Shown: piece by piece, positions 26,784-54,961 of the stretch
Position numbering within the stretch: position 1 is the stretch's first letter
Layout of the letters: each line of letters opens with the position of its first letter
DNA from: Candidatus Liptonbacteria bacterium
Lineage (GTDB): Bacteria; Patescibacteriota; Minisyncoccia; UBA6257; 2-01-FULL-56-20
Reading direction: 5' to 3'
Length of the DNA stretch: 64,000 nt
Assembly: GCA_016867315.1 (NCBI GenBank)
Contig: VGJV01000001.1
Coordinates: forward strand, 34,863 to 98,862
Made by a program: the position numbers and the translations under genes
Notes under the pieces: generated by a model
The model's database searches: none
The model's input: the letters and a program-made list of their open reading frames with translations, nothing else
What the model was told of the DNA's origin: nothing

Positions 26784-26871
26784 TAAAAAATTTCTAATAT
26801 CTAATTACTAATTCCTAACTAAATCCCAATTTCCAGAAATGCCCCTTAGAAATTAGGAATTAGAAATTTCT
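26784..26871. repeat. AT-rich intercistronic repeat element, copy Y (gmhA-gmhB spacer); related to 10924-11038
   Basis: Inverted repeat TAATTCCTAA/TTAGGAATTA plus shared blocks with copy X; both copies lie between co-directional minus-strand genes in the same orientation. Confidence 0.5.
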
Positions 26872-27480: not shown

Positions 27481-27575
27481 ATAAATAATTGCAACTTATG
27501 ACTTGACCGATGACAAGAGAATACAAGAAAATCGTATTTCCGTCAATCGCTCGTCTAACTTCTAATGGTTAATAG

Positions 27576-28406: not shown

Positions 28407-29388
28407 AGACTTTTTCTACAATCTTTAAAACTTCCAATACATCTTCGCCTTTAGATTGGAGTTCCATCTCCCCCCCGATCACCGCGGCGAATTCTTCGAG
28501 CTCCCGCACAAACGAATCCTCCTTTTTTTCCTCCGGAAAAGGTGTCACGGTTTCCACTGGGAACTTGCCGGAGCGCGGATCCACTTTCCCTACCGTAAGC
28601 TTTTCGGGACCGCGATAGCGCTTATCCAAGCCGTCTACCGAAAGGTATCCTTTGTCGCCAAAAATCTCGAAGGAATGCACCCATTCCCAGTTTGTCCAGC
28701 TCACATGAATTTGCGCTACGCGTTTGTCCGCAGTGCGAAGCAGGAGAAATCCGTTATCTTCCACTTCTCCTCCCCAAAAGAGATTCTCTGCAAATCCCAG
28801 GGCATCGACAAAATCGCCCATAAACCACCGAGCCATGTCGATCATATGCATTCCTTGATCGATGAGTTCTCCGCCGCCGCTTATTTTCTTATCGAAGCGC
28901 CACTCTTTTTCATAACCGGCGCGGCCGCCGAAACCATATCTCGCGCGGACGCAGATCACTTTGCCAATTTCGCCTTTGTCTACGAGCTTCTTCGCTTCCA
29001 TGTATGCCGGGTGATACCGATGATTGAAACCGATCATATATATCCTTTTCGCGCTGGCCGCGAGTCTCAAATTCTCGGCCACTTCGGCACTCGAGATGCC
29101 CGTAGGCTTTTCGCAAAGCACATGCTTTCCGGCTTCAAGCGCAGATTTCGAAATGGGAGCTAAAAAGGCGTGTGGAGTGGCTATCACGACCGCTTCGAAA
29201 TCACCCTTCTCCAAGGCTTCTTTTATGTCGCCGTAGATCGCAGCCCCAGGGAATCCATCAGCAATGGTTTTCGCTTTGGCTGCATCTATATCTACTACCG
29301 CTTTCACCTCGAATTCTTTGGCTTGCTTCAAAGCATCCGCCCAAATTTTGCCGATACCTCCGGCTCCCACTAATGCGAGTTTTATCAT
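28387..29388 (-). CDS. Gfo/Idh/MocA-family NAD(P)-dependent sugar oxidoreductase
   Basis: N-terminal Rossmann LALVGAGGIG, EKP motif (LCEKP), C-terminal alpha/beta domain. Confidence 0.8.
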   Translation of the reverse strand: MIKLALVGAGGIGKIWADALKQAKEFEVKAVVDIDAAKAKTIADGFPGAAIYGDIKEALEKGDFEAVVIATPHAFLAPISKSALEAGKHVLCEKPTGISSAEVAENLRLAASAKRIYMIGFNHRYHPAYMEAKKLVDKGEIGKVICVRARYGFGGRAGYEKEWRFDKKISGGGELIDQGMHMIDMARWFMGDFVDALGFAENLFWGGEVEDNGFLLLRTADKRVAQIHVSWTNWEWVHSFEIFGDKGYLSVDGLDKRYRGPEKLTVGKVDPRSGKFPVETVTPFPEEKKEDSFVRELEEFAAVIGGEMELQSKGEDVLEVLKIVEKVYAQAGK

Positions 29389-30683
29389 CGTCCGATACTT
29401 ATATAGGTTATTCCCGCCCCTTTTATTTCTTTTTCCTTATCACACAAAATATTTTGCGCGTCGAAGAGCGCGGGCTGTTTCATGACTGACTGGAGTTTCG
29501 CAAAATCCAAGGTTTTAAAGTCTTTCGAGGGGGTTATAATAAGCACCGCATCCGCACCCTCGGCGGCCTCGTAGGCATCTTTAAAGAACGGGGAAGGGGT
29601 TACTGCTTTTACCTCTTCCGGATTTGCAAGCGGATCATAGAGTCGGAACGAGGCGCCAGCTTCCCGAAGCATTTTTTCCACTTCAAGCGCCTGCGAGCGC
29701 CGAAGCGTGGGAGTCCCGGCTTTGTACGTAACTCCCAAGAGCGCAATTGTTTTTCCCCTCACGTTTCCTCCCCACATTTCTTCTAACCTAGTTTTTACTA
29801 ATTCATTTCTTACACGATTCTTTTGGAGCACTCCTTGAATCACCGGCAAAGGAAGTTTTTCCCGTTCACCAGCATGTATTAGTGCTTTAAGGTCTCGTGC
29901 GAGCGTACCTCCGGAGAATCCAAGCCCTGCAAAGAGGTATGCCTTGGGTCCCACCCGAGGGTCGGACTTCAAGGCCCTGATCACATCTTCAATATCGCCG
30001 CCCATTTTCCCCGATACATCCGCGAGATCATTCGTGAAACTAATGCACGTCGCCAAAAACGCATTCAGGGCATGTTTCGCCATTTCGGCCGAAGGTACGG
30101 ACATCGATACTATTTCCACTTTGAGCGGAGCGAAAATCTCCGTTGCGCGCGCCAAGGCTTCCGAGGTATCCCCTCCCAGTACCACCCGACCGGGTTCGAG
30201 GAAACATTTTACCGCATCTCCTAGCCTCAGATTCTCCGGAGAATATACATATTCGAAGTGCAGTTCCGGACGAGCGGCGCGAATCAACTCACAAAGTTTT
30301 TTAGAGGTGCCTACGGGCAATTGGCTCGAAACTCCTACGAGCACATTGTCTCGAAGGAAAGGCGCGGCTTTCTCTACCGCTTCTACCACCACGGAGATAT
30401 CCACTTCATCTTGATCGTCTACCGGCGTGTCGAAAGTAATCCAAATTGCGTTGCAATCTTTCAAGGCCAGCCAGTCGGAAGAATATGCGAGCGTGCCTGC
30501 GGTGCGGTGCTTCTCGATAAGTTCCGTGAGGCGAGGCTCTGCAAGAGGAGGAATATTTTTATTAAAATTCGCGATGACTGCCTCGTCATCGCTTACACCC
30601 ACCACCGAATGCCCTGCTTCCGCAAAACCTGCCGAATACACTTCGCCCAAATGCCACAACCCTATCACCCCTATTTTCACCAT
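29385..30683 (-). CDS. nucleotide-sugar 6-dehydrogenase family protein (UGDH-like) lacking the catalytic cysteine; start moved to MVKIGVIG
   Basis: SDPRVGPKAYLFAGLGFSGGTLARD aligns to the UGDH GFGGSC(F/L)PKD active-site region with Cys->Thr, Lys->Arg; N-terminal glycine motif reads GVIGLWHLG. Confidence 0.65.
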   Translation of the reverse strand: MVKIGVIGLWHLGEVYSAGFAEAGHSVVGVSDDEAVIANFNKNIPPLAEPRLTELIEKHRTAGTLAYSSDWLALKDCNAIWITFDTPVDDQDEVDISVVVEAVEKAAPFLRDNVLVGVSSQLPVGTSKKLCELIRAARPELHFEYVYSPENLRLGDAVKCFLEPGRVVLGGDTSEALARATEIFAPLKVEIVSMSVPSAEMAKHALNAFLATCISFTNDLADVSGKMGGDIEDVIRALKSDPRVGPKAYLFAGLGFSGGTLARDLKALIHAGEREKLPLPVIQGVLQKNRVRNELVKTRLEEMWGGNVRGKTIALLGVTYKAGTPTLRRSQALEVEKMLREAGASFRLYDPLANPEEVKAVTPSPFFKDAYEAAEGADAVLIITPSKDFKTLDFAKLQSVMKQPALFDAQNILCDKEKEIKGAGITYISIGR

Positions 30684-30690
30684 AAGATAT

Positions 30691-31419
30691 TTAAGCTTCG
30701 TATAACTTGTAACCGACTTTCTCACCGTCCTCGTAGAACATCTTTACCGTTTCCTGCGAAAGTGTGTACAGATCATAATCCAACTTTTCTAATTTTTTCA
30801 AAATATCCGGAGTTACCGTTACGATGTGGCAACCCATTTTTTCAGCCTGGAGAATATTCAGAAGCTCCCGTGTGCTCGCCCAAAGAAGTTCCGCGACGGA
30901 ATTCGATGCTAGGATTTTTTTTGCCTCTTCCATATACGGCAACGGATCTCTTCCGGTATCCGCGATCCGGCCAGCAAACACCGAGACTATAGAGGGCACC
31001 TTCGGAGAAAGCACCGCGGCCACTTCTTTTACCTGCTCTACCGTAAGAATTGCGGTTACATTTACTTTCACTCCTTTCTCCACGAGTTTTTTAATCAACG
31101 GCGCAGAGGATTCTTTCTTGGTGTTCATCACTGGAATTTTCACGTAGACATTGTTCGCCCAGGAATTGATGAGCATAGCCTGCCGCTCCATCTCCACAAA
31201 ATCGTCGGAGAACACCTCAAAAGAAATGGATTTCCCGGTAATCGAGGCGAGTACGTCTTTCGCAAAAGCGGCGTAATCGGTTACTCCTGCTTTCCGCATG
31301 AGCGTGGGATTCGTGGTGAGCCCCTGGATATACGGCTTTGACGCAAGCTCCACCATACTTGCCTTCTCGGCGCCATCCGCAAAAATTTTTATGCGTAACT
31401 CTTCAATTTTCCTACTCAT
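30691..31419 (-). CDS. tal: transaldolase / fructose-6-phosphate aldolase family (short form)
   Basis: TTNPTL motif, Schiff-base lysine region VYVKIP; about 240 aa. Confidence 0.8.
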   Translation of the reverse strand: MSRKIEELRIKIFADGAEKASMVELASKPYIQGLTTNPTLMRKAGVTDYAAFAKDVLASITGKSISFEVFSDDFVEMERQAMLINSWANNVYVKIPVMNTKKESSAPLIKKLVEKGVKVNVTAILTVEQVKEVAAVLSPKVPSIVSVFAGRIADTGRDPLPYMEEAKKILASNSVAELLWASTRELLNILQAEKMGCHIVTVTPDILKKLEKLDYDLYTLSQETVKMFYEDGEKVGYKLYEA

Positions 31420-31427
31420 ATTTTAGT

Positions 31428-32414
31428 TTAGAGATCTACCAGCACCTTAGAGCCCTCAAAGTCGAACCGATAACTCATTTCTCGCAAACCAAATTGCTTC
31501 ATCGCTGCCCGAAATTCCCTGTGCTTCTCCGGTACATAGAAAGTGAAAAATCCTCCCCCTCCCGCACCAGAGATTTTCCCCCCCAGCGCTCCCGCAGCTT
31601 TCCCCGCGTCGTATATTTTATCGAATTCCGGATTTGAAACTTTGCTTGACGTGCGCTTTTTGTGCTGCCAGTGTGCATCAAAGAGCTTCCCCACTTCGTC
31701 TACATCGTCCGACTCCATAGCTTCCAGTATTTGCTGGCCAATTTCTTTTATATAATGCATGCTCTCAATCACATCCTTCGCTTCTTCCTTCATCCCCTTC
31801 GATTGCTCGGCAAGCACTACATCCGCACTGCGCTTCACTCCCGTGAAAAACATAAGCATGTTTCGATTCAATGTATCCGCGGTAATTCGCGAAACATTCG
31901 CCTTGCGCACTTTCACGCTGCCGTCTTTCGCAATATCTAATACTGTAAGTCCTCCGAATGCCGCCATATAGGGGTCCTGCTTTCCTATCGGCCGGCCCAT
32001 TACCTTATTCTCAATCGTAAAATCTTCTTCTGCGAGCGTTTCCTGAGGAACATACTCCCGCTTCAATGTGTGTAAGGCGTGGAGTACCGCCACCGCAAAA
32101 CAACTCGAGGAGCCAAGTCCCGTCCCCGCGGAGACATCCGCCACCGTCGAAATTTCGATCTGCTTTTCGATACCTATAAGTCGCAAAATTTCCCGGAAGA
32201 GGCCATGTTTCACTTCGTTTATGCTTGCGACGTATTCCGCCTCGCTGTATTTCAGCCGAATCAGATCATCTTCCATCGGGCGGTTTACGCTCGCGAACAT
32301 ATATTTGTCGATTCCCGCGGAGAAAATAAACCCGCCGTGTTTCTCATAGTATGACGGCAAGTCCGTTCCTCCTCCTCCTAAGGTTACCCGAAATGGGGTG
32401 CGTGTAATGATCAT
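31428..32414 (-). CDS. hddA: GHMP kinase, D-glycero-alpha-D-manno-heptose 7-phosphate kinase-like
   Basis: GHMP motif SAGTGLGSSS, N-terminal TPFRVTLGGGGTD. Confidence 0.7.
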   Translation of the reverse strand: MIITRTPFRVTLGGGGTDLPSYYEKHGGFIFSAGIDKYMFASVNRPMEDDLIRLKYSEAEYVASINEVKHGLFREILRLIGIEKQIEISTVADVSAGTGLGSSSCFAVAVLHALHTLKREYVPQETLAEEDFTIENKVMGRPIGKQDPYMAAFGGLTVLDIAKDGSVKVRKANVSRITADTLNRNMLMFFTGVKRSADVVLAEQSKGMKEEAKDVIESMHYIKEIGQQILEAMESDDVDEVGKLFDAHWQHKKRTSSKVSNPEFDKIYDAGKAAGALGGKISGAGGGGFFTFYVPEKHREFRAAMKQFGLREMSYRFDFEGSKVLVDL

Positions 32415-35363: not shown

Positions 35364-36413
35364 TTATCCCAACCCAATTTTTTTAAATATTTCTCTGAAG
35401 CGGGCTTCGTAGGTGTGCTCTTGTAAGGTGCGCGCATATCCAGCCTCCCTTATTCGCATTCTTTCTTCTGAATGTCCCAGGAAATACTTTATTTTTTCGA
35501 TGCATTCAGGGGGAGTTTTGAAAAAAACCATCTCCTTATCAGGTTCATAATACTTTTCTATGCCTTCTACGTAGCTCGAGAGCGTGAAGGCGCGTGAGCC
35601 GGCGAGCTCAAAGGGCCTGGCGTGAATGTGAGGAATTTTAAAATGCATCCAGCTCTTAAAATTGTCTCTGAAGTGAAAATCTGGAACCACTTCATTCAAA
35701 GATTTTTTCAGGAAAAGACGGGCGAGTACTTTTGGATGCGTGAGCGCCGGCCGATCCGCAATATTCAAATTTATCTTGCTGTGTGCAAATATTCGGAGAA
35801 GTTCCTCATGAGACACGCGTCCTCCGGGCCAGCCCACTCCAAATGCTCTCACCTCTATTCCCACCTCCGCGAGGATTTTAAACAATCTCGCGCGGGGAGG
35901 TTTATATTGCCCCACAAAACTTACGTCTATATCTTGGGGTAGATTTTCTATAGGATAAAAATCTCGCGTGTTACAGGCCCATTGAGAATGGAATACGTTT
36001 TCTAAACCGCTAGATTTATACCAACCTACCGCCTGCAACGAAGTGGTTACCGCGAGGGATAGCACCGGGGCATAGTGGCGAGAGTAGTTCCAAAAACGCC
36101 AATAATCATCCGCGAACCAGCCTACTATAGGAATATGGAGCTCATCTCTTACCCGGCGGAGCGTCTCGGGTAGGAGCTCATCAGTATGCATAAAGAGGAA
36201 TACGAGTGCGGGCTTTTCTTGCTGTACCGCTTTAAAAAAAGCAGCTTGAAAATGCTCTCGTCCCATCTCCAATATAGGGTCGAAAGGAAATTCGACCACT
36301 TCTATTCCCTCCATCCCTTGGAGCGCCCGGAAGAAGCTTTGATATTCAAAACTCATCCCCCGCCTTTTAGGATCGTATCTCTCTTTTTGCACTCCTCCAT
36401 ATAACACCTTCAT
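35364..36413 (-). CDS. glycosyltransferase, CgeB/DUF3880-like (GT-B C-terminal half)
   Basis: C-terminal ARPFELAGSRAFTLS pattern typical of GT4/CgeB-like transferases. Confidence 0.45.
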   Translation of the reverse strand: MKVLYGGVQKERYDPKRRGMSFEYQSFFRALQGMEGIEVVEFPFDPILEMGREHFQAAFFKAVQQEKPALVFLFMHTDELLPETLRRVRDELHIPIVGWFADDYWRFWNYSRHYAPVLSLAVTTSLQAVGWYKSSGLENVFHSQWACNTRDFYPIENLPQDIDVSFVGQYKPPRARLFKILAEVGIEVRAFGVGWPGGRVSHEELLRIFAHSKINLNIADRPALTHPKVLARLFLKKSLNEVVPDFHFRDNFKSWMHFKIPHIHARPFELAGSRAFTLSSYVEGIEKYYEPDKEMVFFKTPPECIEKIKYFLGHSEERMRIREAGYARTLQEHTYEARFREIFKKIGLG

Positions 36414-37492
36414 GTGTTTTTGAAATATTCGTTAAAAAGGCCGATCATATCCGCCGCAAACTGTTCTTGCGTAAAACGTGCAAATGCTTCGGAGGCCATA
36501 AAGGTATTAATGTTCCGAATATACCCATTGTAGGTTTCTTCGTCCATGGAACTCAAGAATCGCTCCAAGTCTTCCCAATTTTGAAACTTCCGAAAATCAA
36601 TAAAACAGCTTGAAGGGATGTAGTCCGTTATATCAGGAGCCCCCCAATACACGGGGATACAGCCCGCCGCCATGGAGTCAATAATTTTTTCAGTAACCCA
36701 CCCTCCGAAGATGCAGTTCTCGAAGCAGATTGAGAACTTATATTGCTGGAGTACCGGATACTTATCATCAATTGCTCCCCTCCACGCAATACCCACTGCC
36801 CGCCTCCACTCCCTTCCTCGGCGCCCCCACGAGAACCTGATCGGCATATCCCAGCCCACCCCGTAGAGATCGAAGCCTTCTCTTTTCGCAAAATGACGGA
36901 TCGCATCCAAACGATCAATGTAGAGTTCTCGATTTTCAAACGTGGGAAGGGGGTGAATCGCGTGTGCGATCGTTACATATGCTCTTCTCAGAGGATGCAC
37001 GCGCGCATTGCCGCTTATCATAGTGAGGAATTTTCTTTTTGAAAATCCGCCTGGAACTTCCGTGCCTTTCGCATACGGCTGAGGAGAGATAAAACTTCTA
37101 AATTTGGTTCGCGGAGAGGCGAAGGACTCCGCTCCCTTCGGCATCAATGTGTAATCGTAAGGAGCCGTAAGTTTTGCCAAATTCCAATAAAACCTGCAGG
37201 CATATAAAGGATGCTCGAATCCCATCAGAATTGCCGGATGAGCGCCAGCCGCAATTACCTGATCCGCACTGCTTCCCAACGTGGCATTCCGCCACAGAAT
37301 TGACCCAGGAAATTCAGTCGGCTGTGCAAGATAACGATCGGCGGTTATGAGGTCAATACCCTCCTTTTTGCACTCTTCGTAAAGATGGCACATCGCCCAA
37401 CCATGCCGATTGTTTCCAATGTTTTTCCTGTCAAAAAGTTTATTTTCCCGCCCGAGCGGCCCCGCCACATCGAGCACCACGACTTTCCTCAT
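36410..37492 (-). CDS. GT10-family alpha-1,3-fucosyltransferase-like glycosyltransferase
   Basis: YKFSICFENCIFGGWVTEKIIDSMAAGCIPVYWG matches the FucT signature YKFxLxFENSxxxxYxTEK; 4-nt overlaps with both neighbours. Confidence 0.6.
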   Translation of the reverse strand: MRKVVVLDVAGPLGRENKLFDRKNIGNNRHGWAMCHLYEECKKEGIDLITADRYLAQPTEFPGSILWRNATLGSSADQVIAAGAHPAILMGFEHPLYACRFYWNLAKLTAPYDYTLMPKGAESFASPRTKFRSFISPQPYAKGTEVPGGFSKRKFLTMISGNARVHPLRRAYVTIAHAIHPLPTFENRELYIDRLDAIRHFAKREGFDLYGVGWDMPIRFSWGRRGREWRRAVGIAWRGAIDDKYPVLQQYKFSICFENCIFGGWVTEKIIDSMAAGCIPVYWGAPDITDYIPSSCFIDFRKFQNWEDLERFLSSMDEETYNGYIRNINTFMASEAFARFTQEQFAADMIGLFNEYFKNT

Positions 37493-40237: not shown

Positions 40238-41113
40238 TTATAACTCCCTTACCATCTCTTCGAAGGAAGGGATACCCAGTTTTTTATTCATATCATGAAT
40301 CGTGCTCAATGTCCGATTTAATTTTCCCTCGGATTCAGGTACCAGCTCACAATCTACTTTAAATTTTGTCTTGAAGGCTTGGAGCATCTCGTATTTTGAA
40401 ACTTTCGTCGAAAAAATGTGGTAGAGGCCGGTTTCGGGAAAGGCTTCCGGGGCGGAGATCACTTTATCGCACACTTTTGCGAACTCTTTGGTGGTGAGCC
40501 CGTTCCAGAAGTGATTCGCGAATCCTTTTATCGTTCTGCCTTTTTGTGCCAAGAACCACTCGAGAAGCCCCGTGAAGCCCTCGAGTTCGCGGCCGATGAT
40601 TGAGGTGCGGAGCGTGAGGCACCGCGTAGGTTCTCCCAGACTCTTCGAAAGACCATAAAGGTCCACTGGAGATTTTGGTGCGTGTTCGTCATATGGGAAT
40701 CCTTCCATGCCGTTGTAGACACAGTCAGTCGTAACATGGATGAGCTTCGGCCCCAAACGCTCCGCGAGCATGTGCGGCAAGGCGCCGTTTACAAAGAGCG
40801 TAAGAGCCGGGTTTTCTTTAGAGAAAGGAATTGTTACTCCCACTGCGTTCACCACATAATCCACTTGAGCGAAGGGTAAAAGAAGGCGGTCAATTCCTTC
40901 TTCTCCTTTTTTGTTCAAAAAATCCTCGAAGAGCGGAGTCGCATCGAACTTTGCCGCCACGTGTTCCTTTGTGCCGCCATATGCTTTCTCGAGCAACTCA
41001 ATTTTCGAAACATCTCGGACTCCGAGGATGAGACTGTATTTATTTTTGAGCTCCATATAAAGAGCGCTCCCGAGCATGCCGGTCGCCCCCAAGATTGCAA
41101 CGGATTTTTTCAT
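40238..41113 (-). CDS. nucleotide-sugar 4-reductase (RmlD-like SDR)
   Basis: ILGATGMLGS Rossmann, YGLSK (YxxxK), about 290 aa RmlD-like architecture. Confidence 0.6.
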   Translation of the reverse strand: MKKSVAILGATGMLGSALYMELKNKYSLILGVRDVSKIELLEKAYGGTKEHVAAKFDATPLFEDFLNKKGEEGIDRLLLPFAQVDYVVNAVGVTIPFSKENPALTLFVNGALPHMLAERLGPKLIHVTTDCVYNGMEGFPYDEHAPKSPVDLYGLSKSLGEPTRCLTLRTSIIGRELEGFTGLLEWFLAQKGRTIKGFANHFWNGLTTKEFAKVCDKVISAPEAFPETGLYHIFSTKVSKYEMLQAFKTKFKVDCELVPESEGKLNRTLSTIHDMNKKLGIPSFEEMVREL

Positions 41114-41119
41114 GCGAGC

Positions 41120-41572
41120 TTATCTGGATTGTACGGTCCACACATCCCCCCACCCAAAAGGATCGAAACGCTTGTCGTCTGCCCGAGATTCGTTGGTCGT
41201 TGCATTCGAAGCGCAGATCAAAACCGTGTTCGGCTCGAGGGATACCCAGCCATTCGCAAAACCGGGAGGAATCACAATTACCTGATTTTTGCGTTCGGAA
41301 CTTATAAACGTAAATTTTTCTTCCGGGTTTTTAGGATTGACCGCCACGAATTTTGCAGCTCCCGCCACAATCCCGAAGATTTTCCACTCTTTTTCGTGAT
41401 AGTGAAACCCTCGCACCACATTCGCCGCATGATTGTATACATAATATACCCGCTTAATTCCTCCCATCGCTTTGAAAAGTTCCGGATTTTTCTCGGCATC
41501 CAAAAAAGGCGAGAATACGCCCCGATCATCGGCAAATACAGCTCCTTCGAAGGCCTGAGGTTTCTTTTCCAT
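41120..41572 (-). CDS. cupin-fold nucleotide-sugar isomerase/epimerase (FdtA/WxcM/RmlC-like)
   Basis: 150 aa; RGFHYHEK His pair as in sugar 3,4-ketoisomerases. Confidence 0.55.
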   Translation of the reverse strand: MEKKPQAFEGAVFADDRGVFSPFLDAEKNPELFKAMGGIKRVYYVYNHAANVVRGFHYHEKEWKIFGIVAGAAKFVAVNPKNPEEKFTFISSERKNQVIVIPPGFANGWVSLEPNTVLICASNATTNESRADDKRFDPFGWGDVWTVQSR

Positions 41573-42522
41573 TAGAACGAGTACTGCGAGAGATGTTTCG
41601 CGTTCGAGTACGCGCTGTGACCGATGTTTTTCATTCTTTTCTCTTTTACCAGCGTCACAAACTCCCGCACTCCATATTCTACATCCCGATCGGTGGGAAG
41701 CGTGAGTACTCCGTCTTTCAAAGCCTTCGCGAAACTCACTCGATAGTTTCTTTTGTCTTCCCGGAACTGTCCCGCGTACTGCAAATCACAACCCGTGATG
41801 GCCTGTACCTTTTTGGCAATTTCCTCCACACTGAAATTCTGCGTGGCTACGTTATAGACTCCCTTCAAGGGCGAGTCGAGGGTGGAGACGATCACTTTTG
41901 CAATATCGCGCACGTGAATATTCGGCCGCCACTGACTGCCTCCGAATACCATAATTTTCCCTTTCGCTGCGGCGTTTGTCGCAAAGGTGTTAATCATCAA
42001 ATCCGTCCGAGGCCGGCTGAATGTATCCGAGATTCCGAACGCGGTTCCCAAGCGCAAGATCACCGCGTTTTTCTTCAAAAGATATTTTTCCGCATCCACC
42101 TTAGTTACGCCATAGAGCGATACCGGGGCAGTGTCATGCTCCTCTGTTGCTTCTTCTTCGCGATGGCCGTAGACCGAACAGGTGGAGGTGAATATAATCC
42201 GACCGTCGAAATTTTCAGAGAGCCACTTGGGCGCAAGCTCATTGATCTCGACCGCGGCTTCGGGGTGAATCGAACAGGCTCCATCCCCCACAATCGCGGC
42301 GAGCCAAATCACGTGCGAATATTCGGGGAGAATTTTTTTTAAAAGTTCTTTATCCCGCACATCGCCGTACACAAAATCCACGGGCTTCAAATACCGTTCT
42401 TCGTATACCAAACTGTCGAACACCGTGAAGGGAATTTTTTTCTCGAGAAGTTCGTCGGTAACGGCACCGCCCACATAGCCTGCGCCACCCACTACGAGCA
42501 CCCGTTTTATATTCGAATTCAT
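41572..42522 (-). CDS. NAD-dependent epimerase/dehydratase (SDR extended; start moved to MNSNIKR)
   Basis: VVGGAGYVGG, YGVTK (YxxxK). Confidence 0.75.
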   Translation of the reverse strand: MNSNIKRVLVVGGAGYVGGAVTDELLEKKIPFTVFDSLVYEERYLKPVDFVYGDVRDKELLKKILPEYSHVIWLAAIVGDGACSIHPEAAVEINELAPKWLSENFDGRIIFTSTCSVYGHREEEATEEHDTAPVSLYGVTKVDAEKYLLKKNAVILRLGTAFGISDTFSRPRTDLMINTFATNAAAKGKIMVFGGSQWRPNIHVRDIAKVIVSTLDSPLKGVYNVATQNFSVEEIAKKVQAITGCDLQYAGQFREDKRNYRVSFAKALKDGVLTLPTDRDVEYGVREFVTLVKEKRMKNIGHSAYSNAKHLSQYSF

Positions 42523-46658: not shown

Positions 46659-47852
46659 TTATTTCGTCGCATGGAGCAAAGATACGGATATTTCCGTGAA
46701 GAACTCCGCGACGAGCTCCTGGAGTTTTTGCAATCGATCTTCTCCCACGAACTGATTGTTTCCAATATAGAATCCGTGCTCATGCACAAACTCCGCATTC
46801 GGAAACTGCGAAGGATGCGCAAATTTTTTCAGGAACGGCTGCCGCATAAGATTTCCGCTAATCACGGGACGCGATTCGATCCCCGCTTTCCGAATCTTCG
46901 CCTGAAACGCTTCCTTATGCTCTTTTTTATGAAAGAGAAAAGGAAGTGAAAACGAAGAGGTGCCTTCGCGGAACGTGGAGAAATGCAAAAACTCTTTGTA
47001 GGGGGCGAGAATTTCAAGAAACTTCCGGTGATTCTCATTGCGGATTCGGATGTAGCGATCCAGGTGCTTCAATTGCTCGATTCCCAACACCGCATGCAGT
47101 TCCGTGTTTCGAACGTTATATCCTTCCGTCAAAAACAGGAACTGAAAATCGATATCCGGATGTTTTTCTTTATGCGCAGAGTGATACGACTCCGGCAATT
47201 CCCGGGCTAATCCATGCGACCGCTTCAAAACACAAAGTCTGTAGATATCCTCATCGTCCGTGCAAATCATTCCTCCCTCGACAGTTGTCATGTGATGCCC
47301 CCAATAGAAGCTGAAAGAGCCGCAAGAAGAAAGGCTCCCTACCTTTACTCCATCCACCGTGGCTCCATGTGCCTCGCAACAATCCTCCATGAGTTTTATG
47401 TCACGCGCTTCCGCAAGTTTACGGAGACGCTTCATATCTGCGGGGACTCCCAAAAGGTGGGTTATAAATATTGCCCGAGTCTTAGGGGTAATCACCCGTT
47501 CTATTTTTTCATAGTCGAAGGAGAGGTCGGTCAAATTCACGTCCACAAAAACGGGCGTAAGGCCGCATTGAAGCACGGGGGTGATATTCGTGATCCAGGT
47601 TACCGCGGGCACAATGATTTCATCTTTATCGTCCCATCCGTATTTTTCTTTCATCGCGCTCATCATAAGAAGATTCGCGGAGCTGCCGGAGTTCACGAAC
47701 ACGCTATATTTCGAGCCCTGCCAGGCAGACCATGCGCGCTCGAATTCCCGCACTTTTTCAAACTGCGTAAAGCGGGCGGTGGAACGAATAAAGTTCACGA
47801 GTACCTCGATATCTCCTCCTTCTAAAATATTTTCTTGTAGTTTCCAAAACAT
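46659..47852 (-). CDS. DegT/DnrJ/EryC1-family PMP-dependent nucleotide-sugar 3-dehydratase (ColD/E1 type; active-site Lys replaced by His)
   Basis: GSFSFYWGHHMTTVEGG aligns to the aminotransferase SFH..K..GEGG motif with K->H as in ColD/E1; 397 aa. Confidence 0.7.
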   Translation of the reverse strand: MFWKLQENILEGGDIEVLVNFIRSTARFTQFEKVREFERAWSAWQGSKYSVFVNSGSSANLLMMSAMKEKYGWDDKDEIIVPAVTWITNITPVLQCGLTPVFVDVNLTDLSFDYEKIERVITPKTRAIFITHLLGVPADMKRLRKLAEARDIKLMEDCCEAHGATVDGVKVGSLSSCGSFSFYWGHHMTTVEGGMICTDDEDIYRLCVLKRSHGLARELPESYHSAHKEKHPDIDFQFLFLTEGYNVRNTELHAVLGIEQLKHLDRYIRIRNENHRKFLEILAPYKEFLHFSTFREGTSSFSLPFLFHKKEHKEAFQAKIRKAGIESRPVISGNLMRQPFLKKFAHPSQFPNAEFVHEHGFYIGNNQFVGEDRLQKLQELVAEFFTEISVSLLHATK

Positions 47853-47864: not shown

Positions 47865-48824
47865 CTATTTAATTCTTTCTCCCGTCACCCCATCGTAGTG
47901 CGCGGCGTACCACTCATACGCATCCTTCACTCCTTCTTCGAGTTCGATTGCGTGCTTCCATCCTAAGCTGCGCATGCGAGACATATCCATTAACTTTCGC
48001 CCCACCCCATCCGGCTTCGTAGTATCCCAGGTGAGGCGTCCTTCATAACCACTTACCTTACCAATAAGTTCGGCGAGGGCCTTAATGGAAATTTCGACGC
48101 CCGTGCCCAGATTAAAAAGATCTTCCTGCGTATCTGTGTTCATAAGAAACAGGCAGCCGGCGGCGATATCATCTACATGAATAAATTCCCGGTATGGACT
48201 TCCTGTTCCCCACAGCACTACCTCTTTTTTCCCTTGCGTCTTCGCTTCGAAAAATTTTCTAATAAATGCCGGGAGTACATGAGAGTTTTTGAGATCGTAA
48301 TGGTCATTAGGGCCGTAGGCGTTTGACGGCATCACCGAAATGAAATTGGTGCCATATTGCTTGTTGTATGACTGACAGGTCAACACTCCTGCGAGCTTCG
48401 CCACCGCGTAGGGCTTGTTCGTCGGCTCAAGCACCCCTGTTAAGAGATACTCTTCTTTCATGGGCTGCGGGCAATCTTTAGGGTAGGTGCAGGAGCTGCT
48501 CAAAAAAAGCAGTTTTTTCACTGTATGCTCGTAAGATGCATGAATGATATTGTTTTGGATCGCCAGATTCTCATAAATGAAGTCTGCGGGGAAAGTACTG
48601 TTTGCATAAATCCCCCCTACTTTTGCCGCTGCATCAAATACATATTCCGGTTTTTCTTTTTTAAAAAATTCCCCGACTGCTACGGTATTCGTGAGATCCA
48701 GTTCCTCATGGGAGCGCGCCACAATATTCGTATATCCTTCTTTTTGAAGCAGGCGCATGATCGCGGAGCCCACCAAGCCACGGTGTCCCGCCACATAAAT
48801 TTTTGCGCCTTTTCCCATTGCCAT
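47865..48824 (-). CDS. fcl: GDP-L-fucose synthase family (GDP-4-keto-6-deoxymannose 3,5-epimerase/4-reductase; Fcl or ColC-type)
   Basis: [28 protein letters not shown] motifs. Confidence 0.85.
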
Positions 48825-48854: not shown

Positions 48855-49331
48855 TTAAAAGCCTGCGGCGCGAAGGGCTTCTTGAATATATTTGAGGAAA
48901 TTTTTCTCAATTTTAGAAGCCCAGCGGAAATCAGAGCTCTGCGCATCGAGCGCCACGGCGGACTCCTTTTTGACTTCCACTAAACACGTGACTATCGGAG
49001 TATGAGTATTGGTTCCGCGGAAATATCCTCTTGGGGATATAAATTCATAAAAGCCGAGAGGTTCTATAAACTTCCCCGCGAGATTGGTTTCTTCCCTAAG
49101 CTTCCGCACCGCAGTTTGGGCAACTGTTTCATTTTTTAATACTCTCCCGCCGGGAAACCACCAGCTTCCCCGTAGTGGTGGTAGTTTGCGCCTCACCAAC
49201 AGAAATTCCCTTTTCCAATTAACCGCCACTACATCGACGCAAAATATCGGGAGTGTTTTATAAATCTTTCGGTAGAGGGCCGCAGGAATTTTCTCGGAAA
49301 CTATTTTCATAGTGCTTGTATTGTACTCCAA
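48855..49331 (-). CDS. NUDIX hydrolase (GDP-mannose mannosyl hydrolase-like)
   Basis: Nudix box GGRVLKNETVAQTAVRKLREETN; position between fcl and gmd as in gmd-fcl-gmm clusters. Confidence 0.65.
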   Translation of the reverse strand: MEYNTSTMKIVSEKIPAALYRKIYKTLPIFCVDVVAVNWKREFLLVRRKLPPLRGSWWFPGGRVLKNETVAQTAVRKLREETNLAGKFIEPLGFYEFISPRGYFRGTNTHTPIVTCLVEVKKESAVALDAQSSDFRWASKIEKNFLKYIQEALRAAGF

Positions 49332-49429: not shown

Positions 49430-50172
49430 TTATTTCATGAGTCCCAACTGGCGGGCGTACTTAAATGTCCCTTGCGTGAGTTCGTCGAGCTGACGCACCC
49501 TTTTAAGGATCATTTCCGGAGTACCTTCGGCTTGGGTCTGAGCCATAGGATGCCCATACGGTACGGGAACATCCATGACTCTGAGTCCCGCCGCGATACA
49601 AGCAATGACCGGGAAGTGAGTGGGATCCCAGGTATCGGGAGCTCCCAGCGCTTCCGGATTGTAGTCCAGGAAATACGGCAGCGCTCTTGGTCCAATCACC
49701 CGCGGGCCGAAGAACATGTCGAGCCACACTCCCGTAGCAAGTCGATAGGCTTCGTTTCCTGCTTGTTCTGTTAAGGTTTGGACTTCGGGTAGGTGACGAA
49801 TCCCTGCGGCATGCGCGAGGGAACGACAAGGTCTGCCTCGCCCGCGAGCACAGGAGCCGCTGCGGTTTCCACGCAGGTTACAAAGCCCACTTTCTCGGGC
49901 TCAAAAAAGACCACCGGATCGTTTTTTGCAAGCTCTCCAGCAACCTTCATTGCCTGCCGTCGACCTGGTCCCAGTTTTCCGGGCGGGTGAGAAATCTCTT
50001 CCACCACCTGCACATGCTGTAGCTTTTCGAATTTCTCCCGATACCACCCCGGAGAACCTCCATCAACCACTACCATTCGATATCCCAATACACTTGCCCG
50101 TTGCACCATCTCATACGCGAGTTGGGAGCGAATATTATTTTTAGGATCGGGGTAGAAAGTGGTGGTAGCCAA
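49430..50172 (-). pseudogene. frameshifted, GC-rich glycosyltransferase-like gene remnant (two ORFs 49771-50172 and 49430-49729 in different frames)
   Basis: The downstream ORF frame stays open far upstream of its GTG and overlaps the upstream ORF tail; VVVDGGSPG motif; local GC clearly above neighbours. Confidence 0.35.
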
Positions 50173-50265: not shown

Positions 50266-51264
50266 TTAGAGAGTAGCTCCTACCGCTTTACAGTCTGCTT
50301 CCACCATAATGCGTACGAGTTCCGGAAACTTTGTTGTTGCTTCCCACTTAAGTTTTTCTTTGGCCTTCTTCGTATCTGCAATAAGATCATCTACTTCCGT
50401 GGGACGGAGATAGCGAGGATCAAACTCCACGTACTTTTTCCAGTCTCCTAAGCCTGCTACCTTAAACGCTTCGGCTACAAATTCTTCTACGGAGTGAGAC
50501 TCCCCTGTCCCGATTACATAGTCTTCGGGCTTTTCCTGCTGGAGCATTTGCCACATCGCTTCGCAATATTCTGGCGCATATCCCCAATCTCGTTTCGCCT
50601 CGAGATTTCCCAAATAAAGTTTTTTCTCGAGGCCGGCTTTGATGCGCGCTACGCCGCGAGAAATTTTCCTCGTCACAAACGTTTCGCCTCGGCGGGGCGA
50701 TTCATGATTGAAGAGAATTCCATTCACTGCAAAAAGCCCATACGCCTCCCGATAATTCCGAGTCATGTGATAGGCGAACACCTTCGCGGCCGCATAAGGA
50801 CTCCGAGGATAAAAAGGGGTATTTTCGCTTTGAGGAGGAGGGGTGGCTCCAAACATTTCCGAGCTCGATGCCTGATAAAACCTCACTTTCTTTTTGGTCT
50901 CTTTCTCGTAATCCTTGATGGCTTCGAGTATCCGAAGCGCACCGAGGCCCACAATCTCCGCGGTATACTCCGGAATATCGAAGGATACGCGCACGTGCGA
51001 TTGTGCGCCCAAGTTATAAAATTCATCGGGAGCTACTTCATACAAGAGCTTCCGAACCGTGTTCGCATCCGACAAGTCTCCATAATGCAAAATAAAATTT
51101 TTATGCTCCACGTGCGGATCTTGATAAATATGATCTATCCGCGAGGTATTGAAGGTCGAAGCGCGCCGAATTACCCCGTGTACTTCATACCCTTTCTTTA
51201 ATAAAATTTCGGCCAAGTAACTTCCATCCTGACCCGTGACACCGGTAAGCAATGCTTTTTTCAT
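50266..51264 (-). CDS. gmd: GDP-mannose 4,6-dehydratase
   Basis: [19 protein letters not shown]-terminus, [22 protein letters not shown] motifs. Confidence 0.9.
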
Positions 51265-52044: not shown

Positions 52045-53433
52045 TTAGTGGGCGTGGGTATGGTTTTCTTCTTTTTTATGATGCATCCACCAAGCCGCAA
52101 AAGCTAAGAACAAGAAAAGGTTTATATAGATGGGCAACACATCAAAGAGCACTAAGCCCTGCACGAGATACCCGACGGGCAATGCAAAAAGGAGTCCCTG
52201 CATTATTGTGGATTCATCCCCATGTCTCACTCGACGGAAAAAGCCTACGAAAAACGTCACAAATATACCTAAGAACGTGAGAACTCCCAAGAGGCCCGTC
52301 TCTGCGAGATAATCGAAGAACAGGCTGTGCGCCCGATCAAACCATGTTTCTGTGGCTTTCCCCGGAGCGAAATGCCGAGGATCGAAATGTTTATCGAATA
52401 CCGCGGGGAAGTTTTCTGGCCCCCAACCAAGAAGAGGTCGTTCTTTGAATCCTTCCCAGGCAGATCCCCAAGTCCATACCCGAGTGGCAAAGCTTTCTAC
52501 GGAACTCACATCATAAAGCCTTCCGGCAAAAGGAATTCTCTTTACCGCATCGGAGTCGTGAAAAAAGAACATCCCCGCATTAAAGAGGAGGATAATGAGC
52601 AACACGATGAGGGAAAAGCGTTTTAACTTTCTCTCTCCTCTTAACGCAGCGTAAAGGAAGAATGTTATGACGGCAGCTCCGAGCCCCAAGAAAGCTCCTC
52701 TGGTTTGCGTAAGTATAAGAAAGACGAAAAAGAAAACTCCTAAGCCGATCCACCATCGGCGCTTTTGGCTTTTTATTGCTAGATAGAAGCAATAAAACAT
52801 GGTGAACATGAGATAGGGCGCCACGTATGCAGGATTACCCAGAGAGCCCTGGAACCTTACTACCGGCGAGAATAGACGACCCAAAAAGGAATCCGCCACA
52901 GGCTGACCCCCAGGACCCGCGTAGGCACTTACCAATCCAAACGGGTTCGTATAGACGCCGTTCGACTGTACTAGTACCGCAGAGCCAATCCCATAAAAAA
53001 CCACAACGAGGGCGGCAGCGATTGCAATTTTGAACACCCGCTCCCAATCTTCCCGCTTCGAAGCAAATAAAGTGAGGAGCATGAATAACCCGTAGTAGTG
53101 GAGCATCTGAAACCCTCCCTCCCCTCTTTCATAGTTAGACCAGAAAGCCCCATGCGGATTGTCTGCAAAAATGGAGGCGAGCAAAAAAGCCGCTACAAAG
53201 AAAGAAACTGCCACTACCAGAGGTCTATTCCAGGCCTCCTTAAATCTCCTCTTTGCTTCTCCGACTGGGGCTTCAAACGCCCACCAGAGGAATGCAAAGG
53301 CTATTCCTAATTCAATAGCGACACGAAACCAGTATGTTTTACCTCCAATAAAAGGGAAAAGCGCCCCCATCAGTACCACAATCACGCAGAAGAGTGAGGC
53401 GTAGGTAAAAAATTTAGAGAGCTTAAGAAGCAT
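52045..53433 (-). CDS. O-antigen ligase / O-antigen polymerase family (Wzy_C domain) membrane protein
   Basis: About 10-12 TM; TQTRGAFLGL and periplasmic-loop RxxxW...AHSLFFDYLAETG pattern typical of WaaL/Wzy_C. Confidence 0.6.
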   Translation of the reverse strand: MLLKLSKFFTYASLFCVIVVLMGALFPFIGGKTYWFRVAIELGIAFAFLWWAFEAPVGEAKRRFKEAWNRPLVVAVSFFVAAFLLASIFADNPHGAFWSNYERGEGGFQMLHYYGLFMLLTLFASKREDWERVFKIAIAAALVVVFYGIGSAVLVQSNGVYTNPFGLVSAYAGPGGQPVADSFLGRLFSPVVRFQGSLGNPAYVAPYLMFTMFYCFYLAIKSQKRRWWIGLGVFFFVFLILTQTRGAFLGLGAAVITFFLYAALRGERKLKRFSLIVLLIILLFNAGMFFFHDSDAVKRIPFAGRLYDVSSVESFATRVWTWGSAWEGFKERPLLGWGPENFPAVFDKHFDPRHFAPGKATETWFDRAHSLFFDYLAETGLLGVLTFLGIFVTFFVGFFRRVRHGDESTIMQGLLFALPVGYLVQGLVLFDVLPIYINLFLFLAFAAWWMHHKKEENHTHAH

Positions 53434-53437
53434 TTCT

Positions 53438-54961
53438 TTATCGAGCGTATTCTACTGCCCGCATTTCTCGAATCACGTTCACTTTAATTTCTCCTGGGTA
53501 TTTTAACTCCGATTGAATTTTATTCGCAATTCCTCGAGCGAGCTCCAAGGCCCGGAAGTCGTCTACCTTTTCGGGAATCACGAACACTCGAAGTTCCCGC
53601 CCCGCAGAAATCGCGTAGGCACTTTTCACGCCTGGGAACTGCATCGCGATCCGCTCCAAGTCTCCTAAGCGCTTGATGTATGCCTCGATCGTGCCTCGGC
53701 GCGCTCCTGGGCGAGCAGCGGAGAGTACATCTGCGGCGGTCACAATGTAGGCCTCAGGGATCGCATATGGATAATCTTCATGATGCGACTGCATGGCTTG
53801 AATCACGCGTTCGTCGATGCTGTATTTTCGCAGAACCTTAATTCCCAAATCCACATGCGTACCTTCGATCTCATGGTCCAGGGCTTTTCCAATGTCATGG
53901 AGTAATGCTCCCCGCTTCGCGATCTCCACATTTAATCCCAATTCTCCCGCCATCATAGTCGAAAGGTGCGCCATTTCGACAGAGTGCGTGAGTACGTTCT
54001 GACCATAACTCGTGCGGAAGTGGAGTCTTCCCAAGAGCTGCACGATTTCCTTCGGTAAATCGAATACGCCTACCTCCTCGGCAGCTTGTCCTCCAATTTC
54101 CTGCATCCGCTTCGCGAGTTCTTGCCGCGCTTCTTCTACTTTCTCTTCAATCTTCGCGGGCTGAATGCGACCGTCCTTAATAAGTTTTTGGAGCGCTAAC
54201 CTGGCCACCTCGCGGCGATACGGGTCGAAGGAAGAAATCACGATCGTATCCGGAGTTTCATCAATCACAAACTCCACCCCGGTCGCGCGTTCGAGGGCGC
54301 GAATGTTTCGACCCTCTCGGCCGATGATTTTTCCTTTGATGTCTTCATCACCCAGCGGAAACGCGCTCGTCGTGAGTTCGGAGACATGCGAACGACTCAT
54401 TCGCTGCAGGGCCACCGTGACGATATCCGTCGCGCGCTTCTCTACCTCTTCCCGATTTTCTTTTTCTACCTTCTGCACCAGTTGTACCAAGTCCGCTTTG
54501 CGTTCCTCGGTTACTTTCCGGAAAAGTTCTTCTTTCGCTTCCGCGGCAGAGAGGCCCGAAGCCTTTTCCAGGCGCACCTCGGCTTCCTTTCTTAATGTTT
54601 CGAGATTAGCCTCTTCTTTCTTCAGATGATCCGCTTTGGATTTTAAGGCCGCCTCATCGTTCCCGAGGGAAGCCAGCTTTTTATCCAAGAGCTCCTCCCG
54701 ACGAATAAGCCTTTGCTCCAAATTCACCACCTCCTGCTTCCGCTCTTTTTCTTCCTTCCTCGCTTCAGAGAGGACGTCCGCCGCTTTGTGTTCGGCTTCA
54801 AGTACTACCTTTTTCGCTTTTTCCTCGGCGGCGCCGAGGATTTCTTTAGTTTTTTCCTCCGCTTTCGCTGCCTGCTGGGTCGCAAAGGCAAGACGCACTA
54901 CATACCCAATGCACGCTCCAACGACAAGCACCCCGACGAGGGGTATCCACGATCCTTCCAT
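53438..54961 (-). CDS. rny: ribonuclease Y
   Basis: N-terminal TM, coiled-coil K/E-rich region, KH domain GKIIGREGRNIRALE, HD domain LLHDIGK. Confidence 0.9.
   Translation of the reverse strand: MEGSWIPLVGVLVVGACIGYVVRLAFATQQAAKAEEKTKEILGAAEEKAKKVVLEAEHKAADVLSEARKEEKERKQEVVNLEQRLIRREELLDKKLASLGNDEAALKSKADHLKKEEANLETLRKEAEVRLEKASGLSAAEAKEELFRKVTEERKADLVQLVQKVEKENREEVEKRATDIVTVALQRMSRSHVSELTTSAFPLGDEDIKGKIIGREGRNIRALERATGVEFVIDETPDTIVISSFDPYRREVARLALQKLIKDGRIQPAKIEEKVEEARQELAKRMQEIGGQAAEEVGVFDLPKEIVQLLGRLHFRTSYGQNVLTHSVEMAHLSTMMAGELGLNVEIAKRGALLHDIGKALDHEIEGTHVDLGIKVLRKYSIDERVIQAMQSHHEDYPYAIPEAYIVTAADVLSAARPGARRGTIEAYIKRLGDLERIAMQFPGVKSAYAISAGRELRVFVIPEKVDDFRALELARGIANKIQSELKYPGEIKVNVIREMRAVEYAR

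Follow-up and report, generated by a model that had tools for sequence, protein, structure and literature searches.

What is made by a sugar operon whose DegT-family protein carries a histidine in place of the catalytic lysine? The question is raised by a 64,000-nucleotide (nt) stretch of Candidatus Liptonbacteria DNA (assembly GCA_016867315.1, contig VGJV01000001.1, positions 34,863 to 98,862), hereafter the window, which encodes such a protein of 397 aa. A first-pass annotation had taken it for a ColD/E1-type sugar 3-dehydratase dependent on pyridoxamine 5'-phosphate (PMP), encoded within a complete gene set for guanosine diphosphate (GDP)-L-colitose. Here the protein groups with a separate and widespread dehydratase clade, recognizable by the motif FYWGHH, and the genes of this clade mostly lie close to those of enzymes dependent on thiamine diphosphate (ThDP). 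On balance we lean towards a main role in which it supplies GDP-4-keto-3,6-dideoxymannose, independently of an E3-type reductase, as the acceptor for acyl branching at C-4.

The motif string of the open reading frame (ORF), GSFSFYWGHHMTTVEGG, is encoded at 47271..47321 on the minus strand. The protein falls in family PF01041 (DegT/DnrJ/EryC1/StrS), and 55 family members in the PDB match it at E < 1e-5. A phmmer search of PDB chains placed ColD of Escherichia coli O55 at the top (E 6e-71, full length, query 20-380 against 22-388) and E1 second (E 2e-41), with the AHH of E1 aligned with GHH of the query. His186, the first His of the motif pair, shares its column with His188 of ColD in this search and with His220 of E1. 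The ColD mutant chains 3b8x (H188N), 2r0t (Lys) and 3gr9 (H188K/S187N) deviate from the wild type precisely at this column, and the PDB entry titles bear out the mutations of 3b8x and 3gr9. When 95 family members drawn from 82 loci were aligned with MAFFT, the column held His in 81/81 dehydratase-type proteins and Lys in 11 DegT paralogs of the same loci (e.g., FYANKI, FYPGKN, and FHPRKV). His in the lysine column is thus seen in three independent alignments, and the motif holds no alternative Lys. That His replaces the pyridoxal 5'-phosphate (PLP) lysine, as in the His-type sugar 3-dehydratases, is confirmed. The first-pass annotation was therefore right about the ORF and its substitution: aligned with ColD, E1 and true aminotransferases, the His is not offset. 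The ColD-like length it pointed out also agrees (ColD has 390 aa, E1 437 aa).

The residues F182-Y-W-G-H-H187 are invariant among 24 relatives from many phyla that are 60–69% identical, and together with a mean column identity of 68% this argues for purifying selection. An AlphaFold2 model of the protein (predicted local distance difference test score 87.7) has ColD as its best fold match, with a template modeling (TM) score of 0.86-0.88, ahead of GDP-perosamine synthase and E1; family structures score 0.8-0.88. GDP-perosamine synthases are also among the nearest non-dehydratase relatives in both sequence and fold matches. Residues R217, N246, and R328 are invariant, and their counterparts in the ColD alignment, Arg219, Asn248, and Arg331, are taken here to be GDP/sugar contacts; this numbering fits the PDB chains. 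The public record of the identical protein comes from a Candidatus Liptonbacteria metagenome-assembled genome (MAG; Patescibacteria/Parcubacteria) and is named only 'DegT/DnrJ/EryC1/StrS aminotransferase family protein'. As a matching gene order is found on contigs of three independent samples, the locus is no assembly artefact.

Two mechanisms are known for His-type 3-dehydratases. E1 and SpnQ depend on a reductase and have a [2Fe-2S] motif of four cysteines, whereas ColD works without a cluster and has its PMP regenerated by glutamate (PMC8987622). SpnQ, the dTDP (deoxythymidine diphosphate)-4-keto-2,6-dideoxyglucose 3-dehydratase of spinosyn forosamine synthesis, is thus a His-type DegT protein like the one studied here, but its iron-sulfur (Fe-S) motif, its reductase dependence and its dTDP-sugar have no counterpart seen in the window protein (PMC8987622). 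E1 (AscC/DdhC/RfbH) of Yersinia pseudotuberculosis (3BCX, 3BB8) likewise shares the His. Its stretch DCYCAPGCDNTC aligns to a cysteine-free stretch of the window protein, where the columns of C-x-C-x3-C-x3-C hold R, L, Y, and H, as in ColD. The E1 stretch presumably includes the Fe-S ligands Cys251, Cys253, and Cys261; the Cys251 column is Arg in both ColD and the window protein (Arg217). The best NCBIfam match, RfbH (NF011936), scores 222.8 bits, far under the cutoff of 423 for an E1 equivalog. No window ORF of at least 100 aa has a plant-type 2Fe-2S motif by regular expression, a crude test for E3, which agrees with the earlier statement that no E3-type reductase is nearby. None of the short-chain dehydrogenases/reductases (SDRs) of the window that were scanned reached the cutoff of the cytidine diphosphate (CDP)-glucose 4,6-dehydratase model. 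A genuine E1-type protein found in our survey (locus L072; 68% identical to E1, cysteines present) is clearly separable from the ColD type. Given the absent cysteines, the RfbH score, the lack of a 2Fe-2S ORF and the contrast with L072, the protein is, by these sequence features, of the Fe-S-free class with a ColD mechanism rather than of the E1 type. Of the original ColD/E1 label, the His-type, Fe-S-free ColD half is retained; the E1 half is lost, and so is orthology to ColD (see below).

It is highly improbable that the protein is a CDP-4-keto-6-deoxyglucose 3-dehydrase after all, served by an Fe-S cluster and an E3 encoded elsewhere. JGI pipelines do label many relatives 'CDP-6-deoxy-D-xylo-4-hexulose-3-dehydrase', RfbH is the best NCBIfam match even at ~222 bits, and characterized YerE-type clusters use E1. 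Against this stand, besides the missing cysteine ligands with Arg at the Cys251 column and the RfbH score, an identity to E1 of only 28%, a length like that of ColD, and a window with neither a CDP-glucose dehydratase signature nor a 2Fe-2S-motif ORF. Less probable still is an ordinary sugar aminotransferase with a misaligned His, or a non-functional relic. The generic NCBI name would suit an aminotransferase, but Lys-type paralogs show Lys in the very column where three alignments place the His, no other Lys is available in the motif, and the invariance of FYWGHH under purifying selection fits neither version. Both the E1-type and the plain aminotransferase readings are effectively excluded.

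ColD (WbdK) of E. coli O55 (2GMS, 3B8X, 2R0T, 3GR9) has the DegT fold, the His-for-Lys exchange and the lack of an Fe-S motif in common with the window protein, as well as the residues corresponding to Arg217, Asn246, and Arg328, and the genomic context suggests a GDP-sugar substrate for the latter too. Yet the two are only 36.4% identical over 368 residues, compared with 28.3% between the window protein and E1 and 31.8% between ColD and E1. Using an alignment of relatives, we searched a single representative genome from each species and retained the best 80 loci. The canonical ColD clade has the motif xFFSHH and comprises 14 proteins that are 55–66% identical to E. coli ColD; the census (15 loci) also counted with it the copy in locus L011, whose identity is 48%. 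Other Ser-His lineages form further groups, as does a Gly-His group that holds the FYWGHH clade. The latter was found at 28 loci besides the window, with 51–69% identity to the window protein. In these proteins the F[FY]SHH of ColD orthologs has become FYWGHH, so that Ser187 of ColD corresponds to Gly185, preceded by an invariant Trp. Canonical ColD orthologs have 55–67% identity and F[FY]SHH with Ser187, and those with FFSHH adjoin gmd and a ColC-type gene; the window protein is outside this range of identity, lacks the Ser and has a near-Fcl partner instead.

The window protein is therefore no ColD ortholog but a member of the separate, widespread FYWGHH clade, and the first-pass claim that it is ColD itself is withdrawn. 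The tree of the DegT family that the annotation had called for was built by neighbor joining without bootstrap; it places the protein in the Gly-His group, outside the ColD clade. Its branching order is provisional, while motif classes and identity bands are independent of it. Nor does the supposed rarity beyond enterobacteria and Vibrio apply to this clade, whose hosts include phyla of the candidate phyla radiation (CPR), Woesearchaeota (DPANN archaea), Verrucomicrobiota, Acidobacteriota, Nitrospinota, Myxococcota, Desulfobacterota-type MAGs, Bacteroidota, Omnitrophota, and Pelagibacteraceae. Both current names, 'aminotransferase' and 'CDP-...-3-dehydrase', misfit the FYWGHH proteins, and the distinction made here corrects this annotation trap. 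One Vicinamibacterales MAG (L011) carries both types, a TFFSHH copy (48% to E. coli ColD) and a FYWGHH copy (62% to the window protein) at positions 4095 and 9881, which argues that they are not functionally redundant. At L029:773-2737 the ColD-like ORF has an upstream extension of ~285 aa without a Pfam match, which may be an artefact of stop-to-stop ORF extraction or a real N-terminal domain.

The two clades also differ in their neighbors. A ThDP enzyme is encoded within 10 kb at 24/28 FYWGHH loci and in the window (25/29), compared with 1/15 canonical ColD loci (Fisher p = 3.5e-7), and the only ThDP-positive canonical locus also carries a FYWGHH copy. The ThDP gene is mostly 1–3 kb from the dehydratase gene, usually upstream and on the same strand. 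A first census with YerE-like and one split-E1 reference had found 12/28 and missed split transketolase-type and minimal E1-type enzymes; the count of 24/28 was obtained after the references had been widened, unassigned ORF pairs inspected and split enzymes confirmed by Pfam. The enzymes are YerE-like (window, L005, L007, L009, L012, L025, and L031), split transketolase-type (L010, L013, L017, L018, L021, L022, L023, L029, and L030) or split E1-type, minimal versions included (L004, L008, L011, L015, L016, L019, L023, L024, L027, and L028). These are the three ThDP classes reported as sugar-branching (2025 review, PMC12247030). The first-pass annotation had considered the upstream genes and left out the downstream aminotransferase, YerE-like carboligase and SDRs, i.e., the conserved partners of the clade. 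In a Patescibacteria MAG (L023:6235-9977) a split transketolase-type and a split E1-type enzyme are both encoded directly upstream of the ColD-like gene.

The genes directly downstream of the window dehydratase are tightly packed, with spacings of -35 to +46 nt (Table 1). The best PDB matches of the YerE-like enzyme are 8rph (E 2e-95) and 5ahk (E 4.5e-83), the latter presumably PpYerE, with acetohydroxyacid synthase chains behind (~1e-72). The alignment to 8rph displays the CDG motif diagnostic of JanthE; the window enzyme keeps the canonical GDG-X24-NN. The entry 8rph is JanthE, a characterized YerE-like carboligase that accepts ketones (PMC12188165), and PpYerE and JanthE are YerE-like enzymes with solved structures (PMC12247030). 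YerE-type enzymes attach the acyl unit of an alpha-keto acid to C-4 of CDP-4-keto-3,6-dideoxyglucose, the acceptor described in the literature and the product of E1/E3, and this underlies yersiniose, erwiniose, and related sugars (PMC9306805, PMC12247030). In the window the carboligase is likewise encoded with a 3-dehydratase, two genes downstream of it, but Gmd and a ColD-type enzyme stand in the place of the CDP-glucose/E1/E3 acceptor route. E1 in the yersiniose, erwiniose, and JanthE clusters has the same role that we propose here, provision of a 4-keto-3,6-dideoxy acceptor to a YerE-type enzyme, but with a [2Fe-2S] cluster, an E3 reductase and a CDP-sugar.

The CHARACTERISED cluster used for comparison is that of JanthE, located in Janthinobacterium sp. 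HH01. Its order is nucleotidyltransferase, 4,6-dehydratase, a 441-aa DegT protein, JanthE, SDR, DmpF, DmpG, and SDR. This DegT protein has the motif SFYPAHH and shares 70.6% identity with Yersinia E1, and the DmpF/DmpG pair is 50–55% identical to the pair of the CPR locus L004. The YerE/YerF, ErwE/ErwF, and JanthE clusters thus share an operon logic with the loci described here: 4,6-dehydratase, 3-dehydratase, ThDP carboligase, SDR, and an enzyme for the keto-acid donor. The JanthE layout is matched in FYWGHH loci, but the dehydratase slot is filled by E1 (CDP) there and here by a ColD-type enzyme, accompanied by gmd and by genes of the Fcl-like, Gmm-like NUDIX and GT10/GT11 types. The known clusters combine CDP-glucose with E1, whereas the window apparently combines GDP-mannose with a ColD-type, E3-independent dehydratase, would make its donor with a class-I aminotransferase, and has no recognizable YerF ortholog; other clade loci differ further in that transketolase-type or E1-type ThDP enzymes are swapped in. 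Enzymes that could make the keto acid recur beside the module: L007, L009, and the window have a class-I aminotransferase, L004 has a DmpG/DmpF-type pair of aldolase and dehydrogenase, and L005 and L049 encode PanB-like proteins. Supply of such donor keto acids by aldolase and by transamination routes has been described (Steitz et al., PMC9306805). In a Nitrospinota MAG (L009:2442-4058 and 7340-8776), two B12-binding radical-SAM enzymes are encoded inside the aminotransferase/YerE-like/SDR/ColD-like module, which hints at further C-methylation or rearrangement of a branched sugar.

An SDR of the type named SDR_A here is found at 22/28 clade loci, where its gene as a rule separates the dehydratase gene from the ThDP gene, and the window copy is 46–51% identical to the SDRs of L004 and L005. 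It is a candidate side-chain (YerF-like) or C-4 ketoreductase. A promoter/terminator scan of the operon gave no more sites than shuffled sequence, Rfam had no match in the window, and the only tRNA in the window is far from the dehydratase locus.

Table 1. Genes of the sugar operon and of other glycan genes in the window.
Feature	Position	Strand	Remarks
ColD-like PMP-dependent sugar 3-dehydratase, FYWGHH clade	46659..47852	-	ATG start, 397 aa, His186 at 47295..47297
Class I/II (aspartate aminotransferase-like) aminotransferase, 386 aa	45479..46639	-	Homologs beside YerE-like gene in L007, L009
YerE-like ThDP-dependent carboligase, 613 aa	43591..45432	-	GDG-X24-NN ThDP motif intact
SDR_A, extended SDR, 354 aa	42561..43625	-	Overlaps end of YerE-like gene
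SDR_B	41572..42522	-	Best solved match 6vo6; SDR_B type in 8/28 clade loci
RmlC-like (RmlC/FdtA-like) cupin, 150 aa	41120..41572	-	Candidate C3/C5 epimerase of 4-keto nucleotide sugar
RmlD-like reductase, 291 aa	40238..41113	-	Candidate C-4 reductase
GT10 (fucosyltransferase-family) glycosyltransferase	36410..37492	-	Candidate transferase for GDP-linked L-fucose-like sugar
Fcl-like GDP-sugar epimerase/reductase, near-Fcl	47865..48824	-	462 bits, NF047922 cutoff 500
NUDIX hydrolase, weakly like GDP-mannose mannosyl hydrolase (Gmm)	48855..49331	-	44 bits, under its cutoff
Gmd, GDP-mannose 4,6-dehydratase	50266..51264	-	TIGR01472 518 bits, cutoff 415; presumed supplier of the 4-keto-6-deoxy substrate
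Nucleotidyltransferase	24260-25072	-	Below equivalog cutoff
GmhB-like	26232-26783	-	Below equivalog cutoff
GmhA-like SIS protein	26872-27480	-	Below equivalog cutoff
Transaldolase	30691-31419	-	Above equivalog cutoff
HddA-like GHMP kinase	31428-32414	-	Below equivalog cutoff

Enzyme class, catalytic His, missing Fe-S motif, separate clade and association of genes are what the analysis establishes. On this basis a pathway can be outlined, for which we infer the nucleotide, the pairing of acceptor and donor, and what the aminotransferase and SDRs do. Gmd would convert GDP-mannose to GDP-4-keto-6-deoxy-D-mannose, the likeliest substrate of the dehydratase. By analogy with ColD chemistry, PMP would condense with the 4-keto group of the sugar to a Schiff base; His186 would take the C4' proton, and the 3-OH would leave. 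Hydrolysis of the enamine would then yield the 4-keto-3,6-dideoxy sugar and ammonia, and L-glutamate would regenerate PMP with release of 2-oxoglutarate, with neither an Fe-S cluster nor an E3 reductase involved. The YerE-like enzyme would decarboxylate an alpha-keto acid and add the acyl-anion equivalent to the C-4 ketone of GDP-4-keto-3,6-dideoxy-D-mannose. The class-I aminotransferase could transfer the amino group of an amino acid to 2-oxoglutarate from the dehydratase reaction, which would give the donor keto acid and glutamate, and the two enzymes would then be stoichiometrically matched. SDR_A might next reduce the new side-chain ketone, to give a GDP-linked 4-C-(1-hydroxyalkyl)-3,6-dideoxyhexose of the yersiniose/erwiniose type, which a glycosyltransferase of the cluster would install on a cell-surface glycan. 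The Fcl-like enzyme may divert part of the intermediate to GDP-L-colitose, or simply make GDP-L-fucose.

Several features make it plausible that the substrate is GDP-linked and comes from the adjacent Gmd: gmd is upstream, the Fcl-like and Gmm-like NUDIX genes are adjacent, genes of glycosyltransferase families 10 and 11 (GT10/GT11) are near, L022 has the dehydratase joined to an Fcl-like domain, the closest non-dehydratase relatives include GDP-perosamine synthases, and none of the scanned SDRs reaches the CDP-glucose 4,6-dehydratase cutoff. Only tentatively would we go further and propose that the FYWGHH clade, unrecognized before, has co-evolved with ThDP C-C ligases of three superfamilies and provides an E3-independent, probably GDP-linked route to C-4 acyl-branched 3,6-dideoxy sugars. 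This route would be widespread among uncultivated organisms, CPR bacteria with small genomes and DPANN archaea included. In the window version, dehydratase and class-I aminotransferase would run a closed glutamate/2-oxoglutarate cycle that yields one keto-acid donor per deoxygenated acceptor. The enzyme chemistry and the branching logic are already known; what appears to be new is a dehydratase clade dedicated to ThDP-branching clusters, E3-free and probably GDP-linked, in lineages for which such sugars had not been described.

Yersiniose, erwiniose, caryophyllose, and other C-branched deoxysugars are considered rarities of a few Gram-negative and mycobacterial envelopes. To our knowledge, all characterized routes to them start at CDP-glucose and require the Fe-S enzyme E1 together with E3, and the surface glycans of CPR bacteria and DPANN archaea are essentially unknown. 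If FYWGHH proteins do feed ThDP ligases, branched sugars would be far commoner than thought and would extend to both of these groups, and nature would have a simpler, reductase-free route to the ketone acceptor. A FYWGHH gene with an adjacent ThDP gene could then serve as a signature for mining new carboligases that accept ketones, a type of biocatalyst in demand for making chiral tertiary alcohols.

Several observations weigh against this proposal. No ThDP enzyme was detected at four clade loci (L006, L014, L020, and L026, the last only 2.3 kb long), the loci are only the best 80 matches of one scan, and the tree lacks bootstrap values. Comparison with the SDRs of the JanthE cluster identified no YerF ortholog in the window: SDR_A is only 24% identical to the 351-aa SDR of that cluster and has uridine diphosphate (UDP)-xylose synthase as its best solved match, and the 313-aa SDR has no match among the window SDRs. 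The gmd gene lies within 10 kb at only 7/28 clade loci. An Fcl-like gene, on the other hand, is found ≤300 nt from the dehydratase gene at 10/28 clade loci and in the window, and adjoins gmd only once. At L022:9986-12124, in a Candidatus Woesearchaeota MAG, a single 712-aa ORF has two domains, a ColD-like one with 55% identity to the window dehydratase and a C-terminal Fcl-like one with 50% identity to the window Fcl-like protein (419 bits on the Fcl model), and so by its predicted domains is a Rosetta-stone link between the two enzymes, in an archaeon. This adjacency and fusion point to a coupling of the ColD-to-ColC kind, in which reduction of C-4 precludes branching. The window also holds a probable GDP-heptose route and a heptose-tailoring trio like that of Campylobacter jejuni, so the substrate might be a heptose. 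Finally, an in-silico survey published by Krug et al. in 2024 reportedly covered >200 YerE-like clusters, and some clusters of the FYWGHH clade may already be listed there.

Could the operon then make colitose alone? The protein would act as ColD on the GDP-4-keto-6-deoxymannose formed by Gmd and remove the 3-OH, an Fcl-family enzyme would epimerize C-5 and reduce C-4, and the ThDP enzyme and remaining genes would serve a different sugar. The first-pass annotation had drawn this conclusion from the upstream genes on the same strand. Of these, gmd is a clear case (best PDB matches plant MUR1, E 2.5e-137, and E. coli Gmd, E 7e-123), the NUDIX hydrolase is weakly Gmm-like (such a gene occurs at 7/28 related clade loci, often directly after the dehydratase), and the third is indeed of the Fcl family, with E. 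coli Fcl as its best solved match (E 2e-108). It is not of the ColC type, however, and the window has no ColC-type gene. The ColC-type partners of canonical ColD score 294–309 bits on the Fcl model and are 31–39% identical to the window Fcl-like protein, which scores 462 bits and thus stays under the 500 bits of an Fcl equivalog, as do all the Fcl-like partners of the clade that were tested (7/7, 394–488 bits). The gene set for colitose is therefore not complete as had been claimed. From its similarity, the Fcl-like enzyme is a candidate GDP-L-fucose synthase and/or a stand-in colitose synthase, and it could perform the ColC reaction. Because of the Fcl-like/dehydratase adjacency and the fusion, colitose is still a possible second fate of the product. 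In favor of colitose as the only product are the placement of gmd, Fcl-like and ColD-like genes on one strand, the recurrent Fcl-like pairing with its fusion in L022, a Fcl-like/dehydratase pair without a detectable ThDP enzyme in L014, and the nearby genes of the GT10/GT11 fucosyltransferase families, colitose being 3-deoxy-L-fucose. We nevertheless regard it as unlikely, given the 36% identity to ColD, the separate clade and the type of the Fcl-like partner, and it leaves unexplained both the 25/29 association with ThDP enzymes and the interposed aminotransferase, YerE-like and SDR genes.

A deoxyheptose of the C. jejuni type is another conceivable product. The dehydratase would act on a GDP-4-keto-heptose, formed from GDP-D-glycero-D-manno-heptose by a Gmd-like 4,6-dehydratase or a Cj1427-like SDR_B, and a cupin epimerase and an RmlD-like reductase would complete a GDP-3,6-dideoxy- or 3-deoxy-heptose. 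A probable GDP-D-glycero-D-manno-heptose route is encoded in the same glycan cluster (window 24260-32414, minus strand), with a transaldolase, GmhA-, HddA-, and GmhB-like proteins and a nucleotidyltransferase. SDR_B has 6vo6 as its best PDB match, which we take to be Cj1427, a GDP-heptose C4-dehydrogenase, and the cupin and RmlD-like genes close the operon. SDR_B could possibly offer a second entry to a 4-keto GDP-sugar or be a piece of a separate heptose-tailoring module. Together, these three genes (window 40238-42522, minus strand) resemble the GDP-heptose trio of C4-dehydrogenase, epimerase, and C4-reductase in C. jejuni, and may form a module of their own, apart from the dehydratase and ThDP genes. 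In C. jejuni HS:5/HS:11, a ColD-type, GDP-linked and glutamate-dependent C3-dehydratase acts on GDP-6-deoxy-4-keto-heptose and GDP-4-keto-heptose in the route to GDP-3,6-dideoxyheptose, and is followed by a cupin C5-epimerase and an SDR C4-reductase (PMC10440746, PMC10680097). The window shares with this system the cupin and SDR reductase gene types and the genes for GDP-heptose synthesis. The C. jejuni dehydratases are, however, 62–67% identical to E. coli and Yersinia ColD, i.e., canonical orthologs, and the described pathway has no ThDP enzyme; the ThDP association would go unexplained. Moreover, the window Gmd passes the gmd equivalog cutoff and is nearest to genuine Gmd enzymes, the heptose genes are 8–22 kb off, and the heptose of L005 is apparently linked to adenosine diphosphate (ADP) and used by a family 9 glycosyltransferase (GT9). 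We consider a deoxyheptose product quite improbable and keep the branched dideoxyhexose as the preferred one.

Fucosyltransferase-family genes recur near FYWGHH dehydratases. Besides the GT10 gene of the window (a CPR bacterium), GT10 and GT11 genes flank the dehydratase in the Pelagibacteraceae genome L031 (9042-9950 and 11154-12125), and a GT11 gene is present on a second CPR contig, P0014. This recurrence suggests a transferred sugar similar to GDP-L-fucose.

Between gmd and the NUDIX gene (window 49430-50172, minus strand) are two small ORFs of 133 aa and 99 aa without a Pfam match. Gene callers place two small genes likewise on three other contigs of the same organism. The pair may represent a single gene that is split or degenerate, or else small uncharacterized proteins. 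On the far side of gmd, at 52045-53433 and 53438-54961 on the minus strand, a Wzy_C (O-antigen ligase-like) membrane protein is encoded, with RNase Y on one side and the sugar operon on the other, although lipopolysaccharide would not be expected in CPR bacteria. The order RNase Y, Wzy_C, small ORF, and gmd is kept in two further CPR contigs (P0014 and L005).

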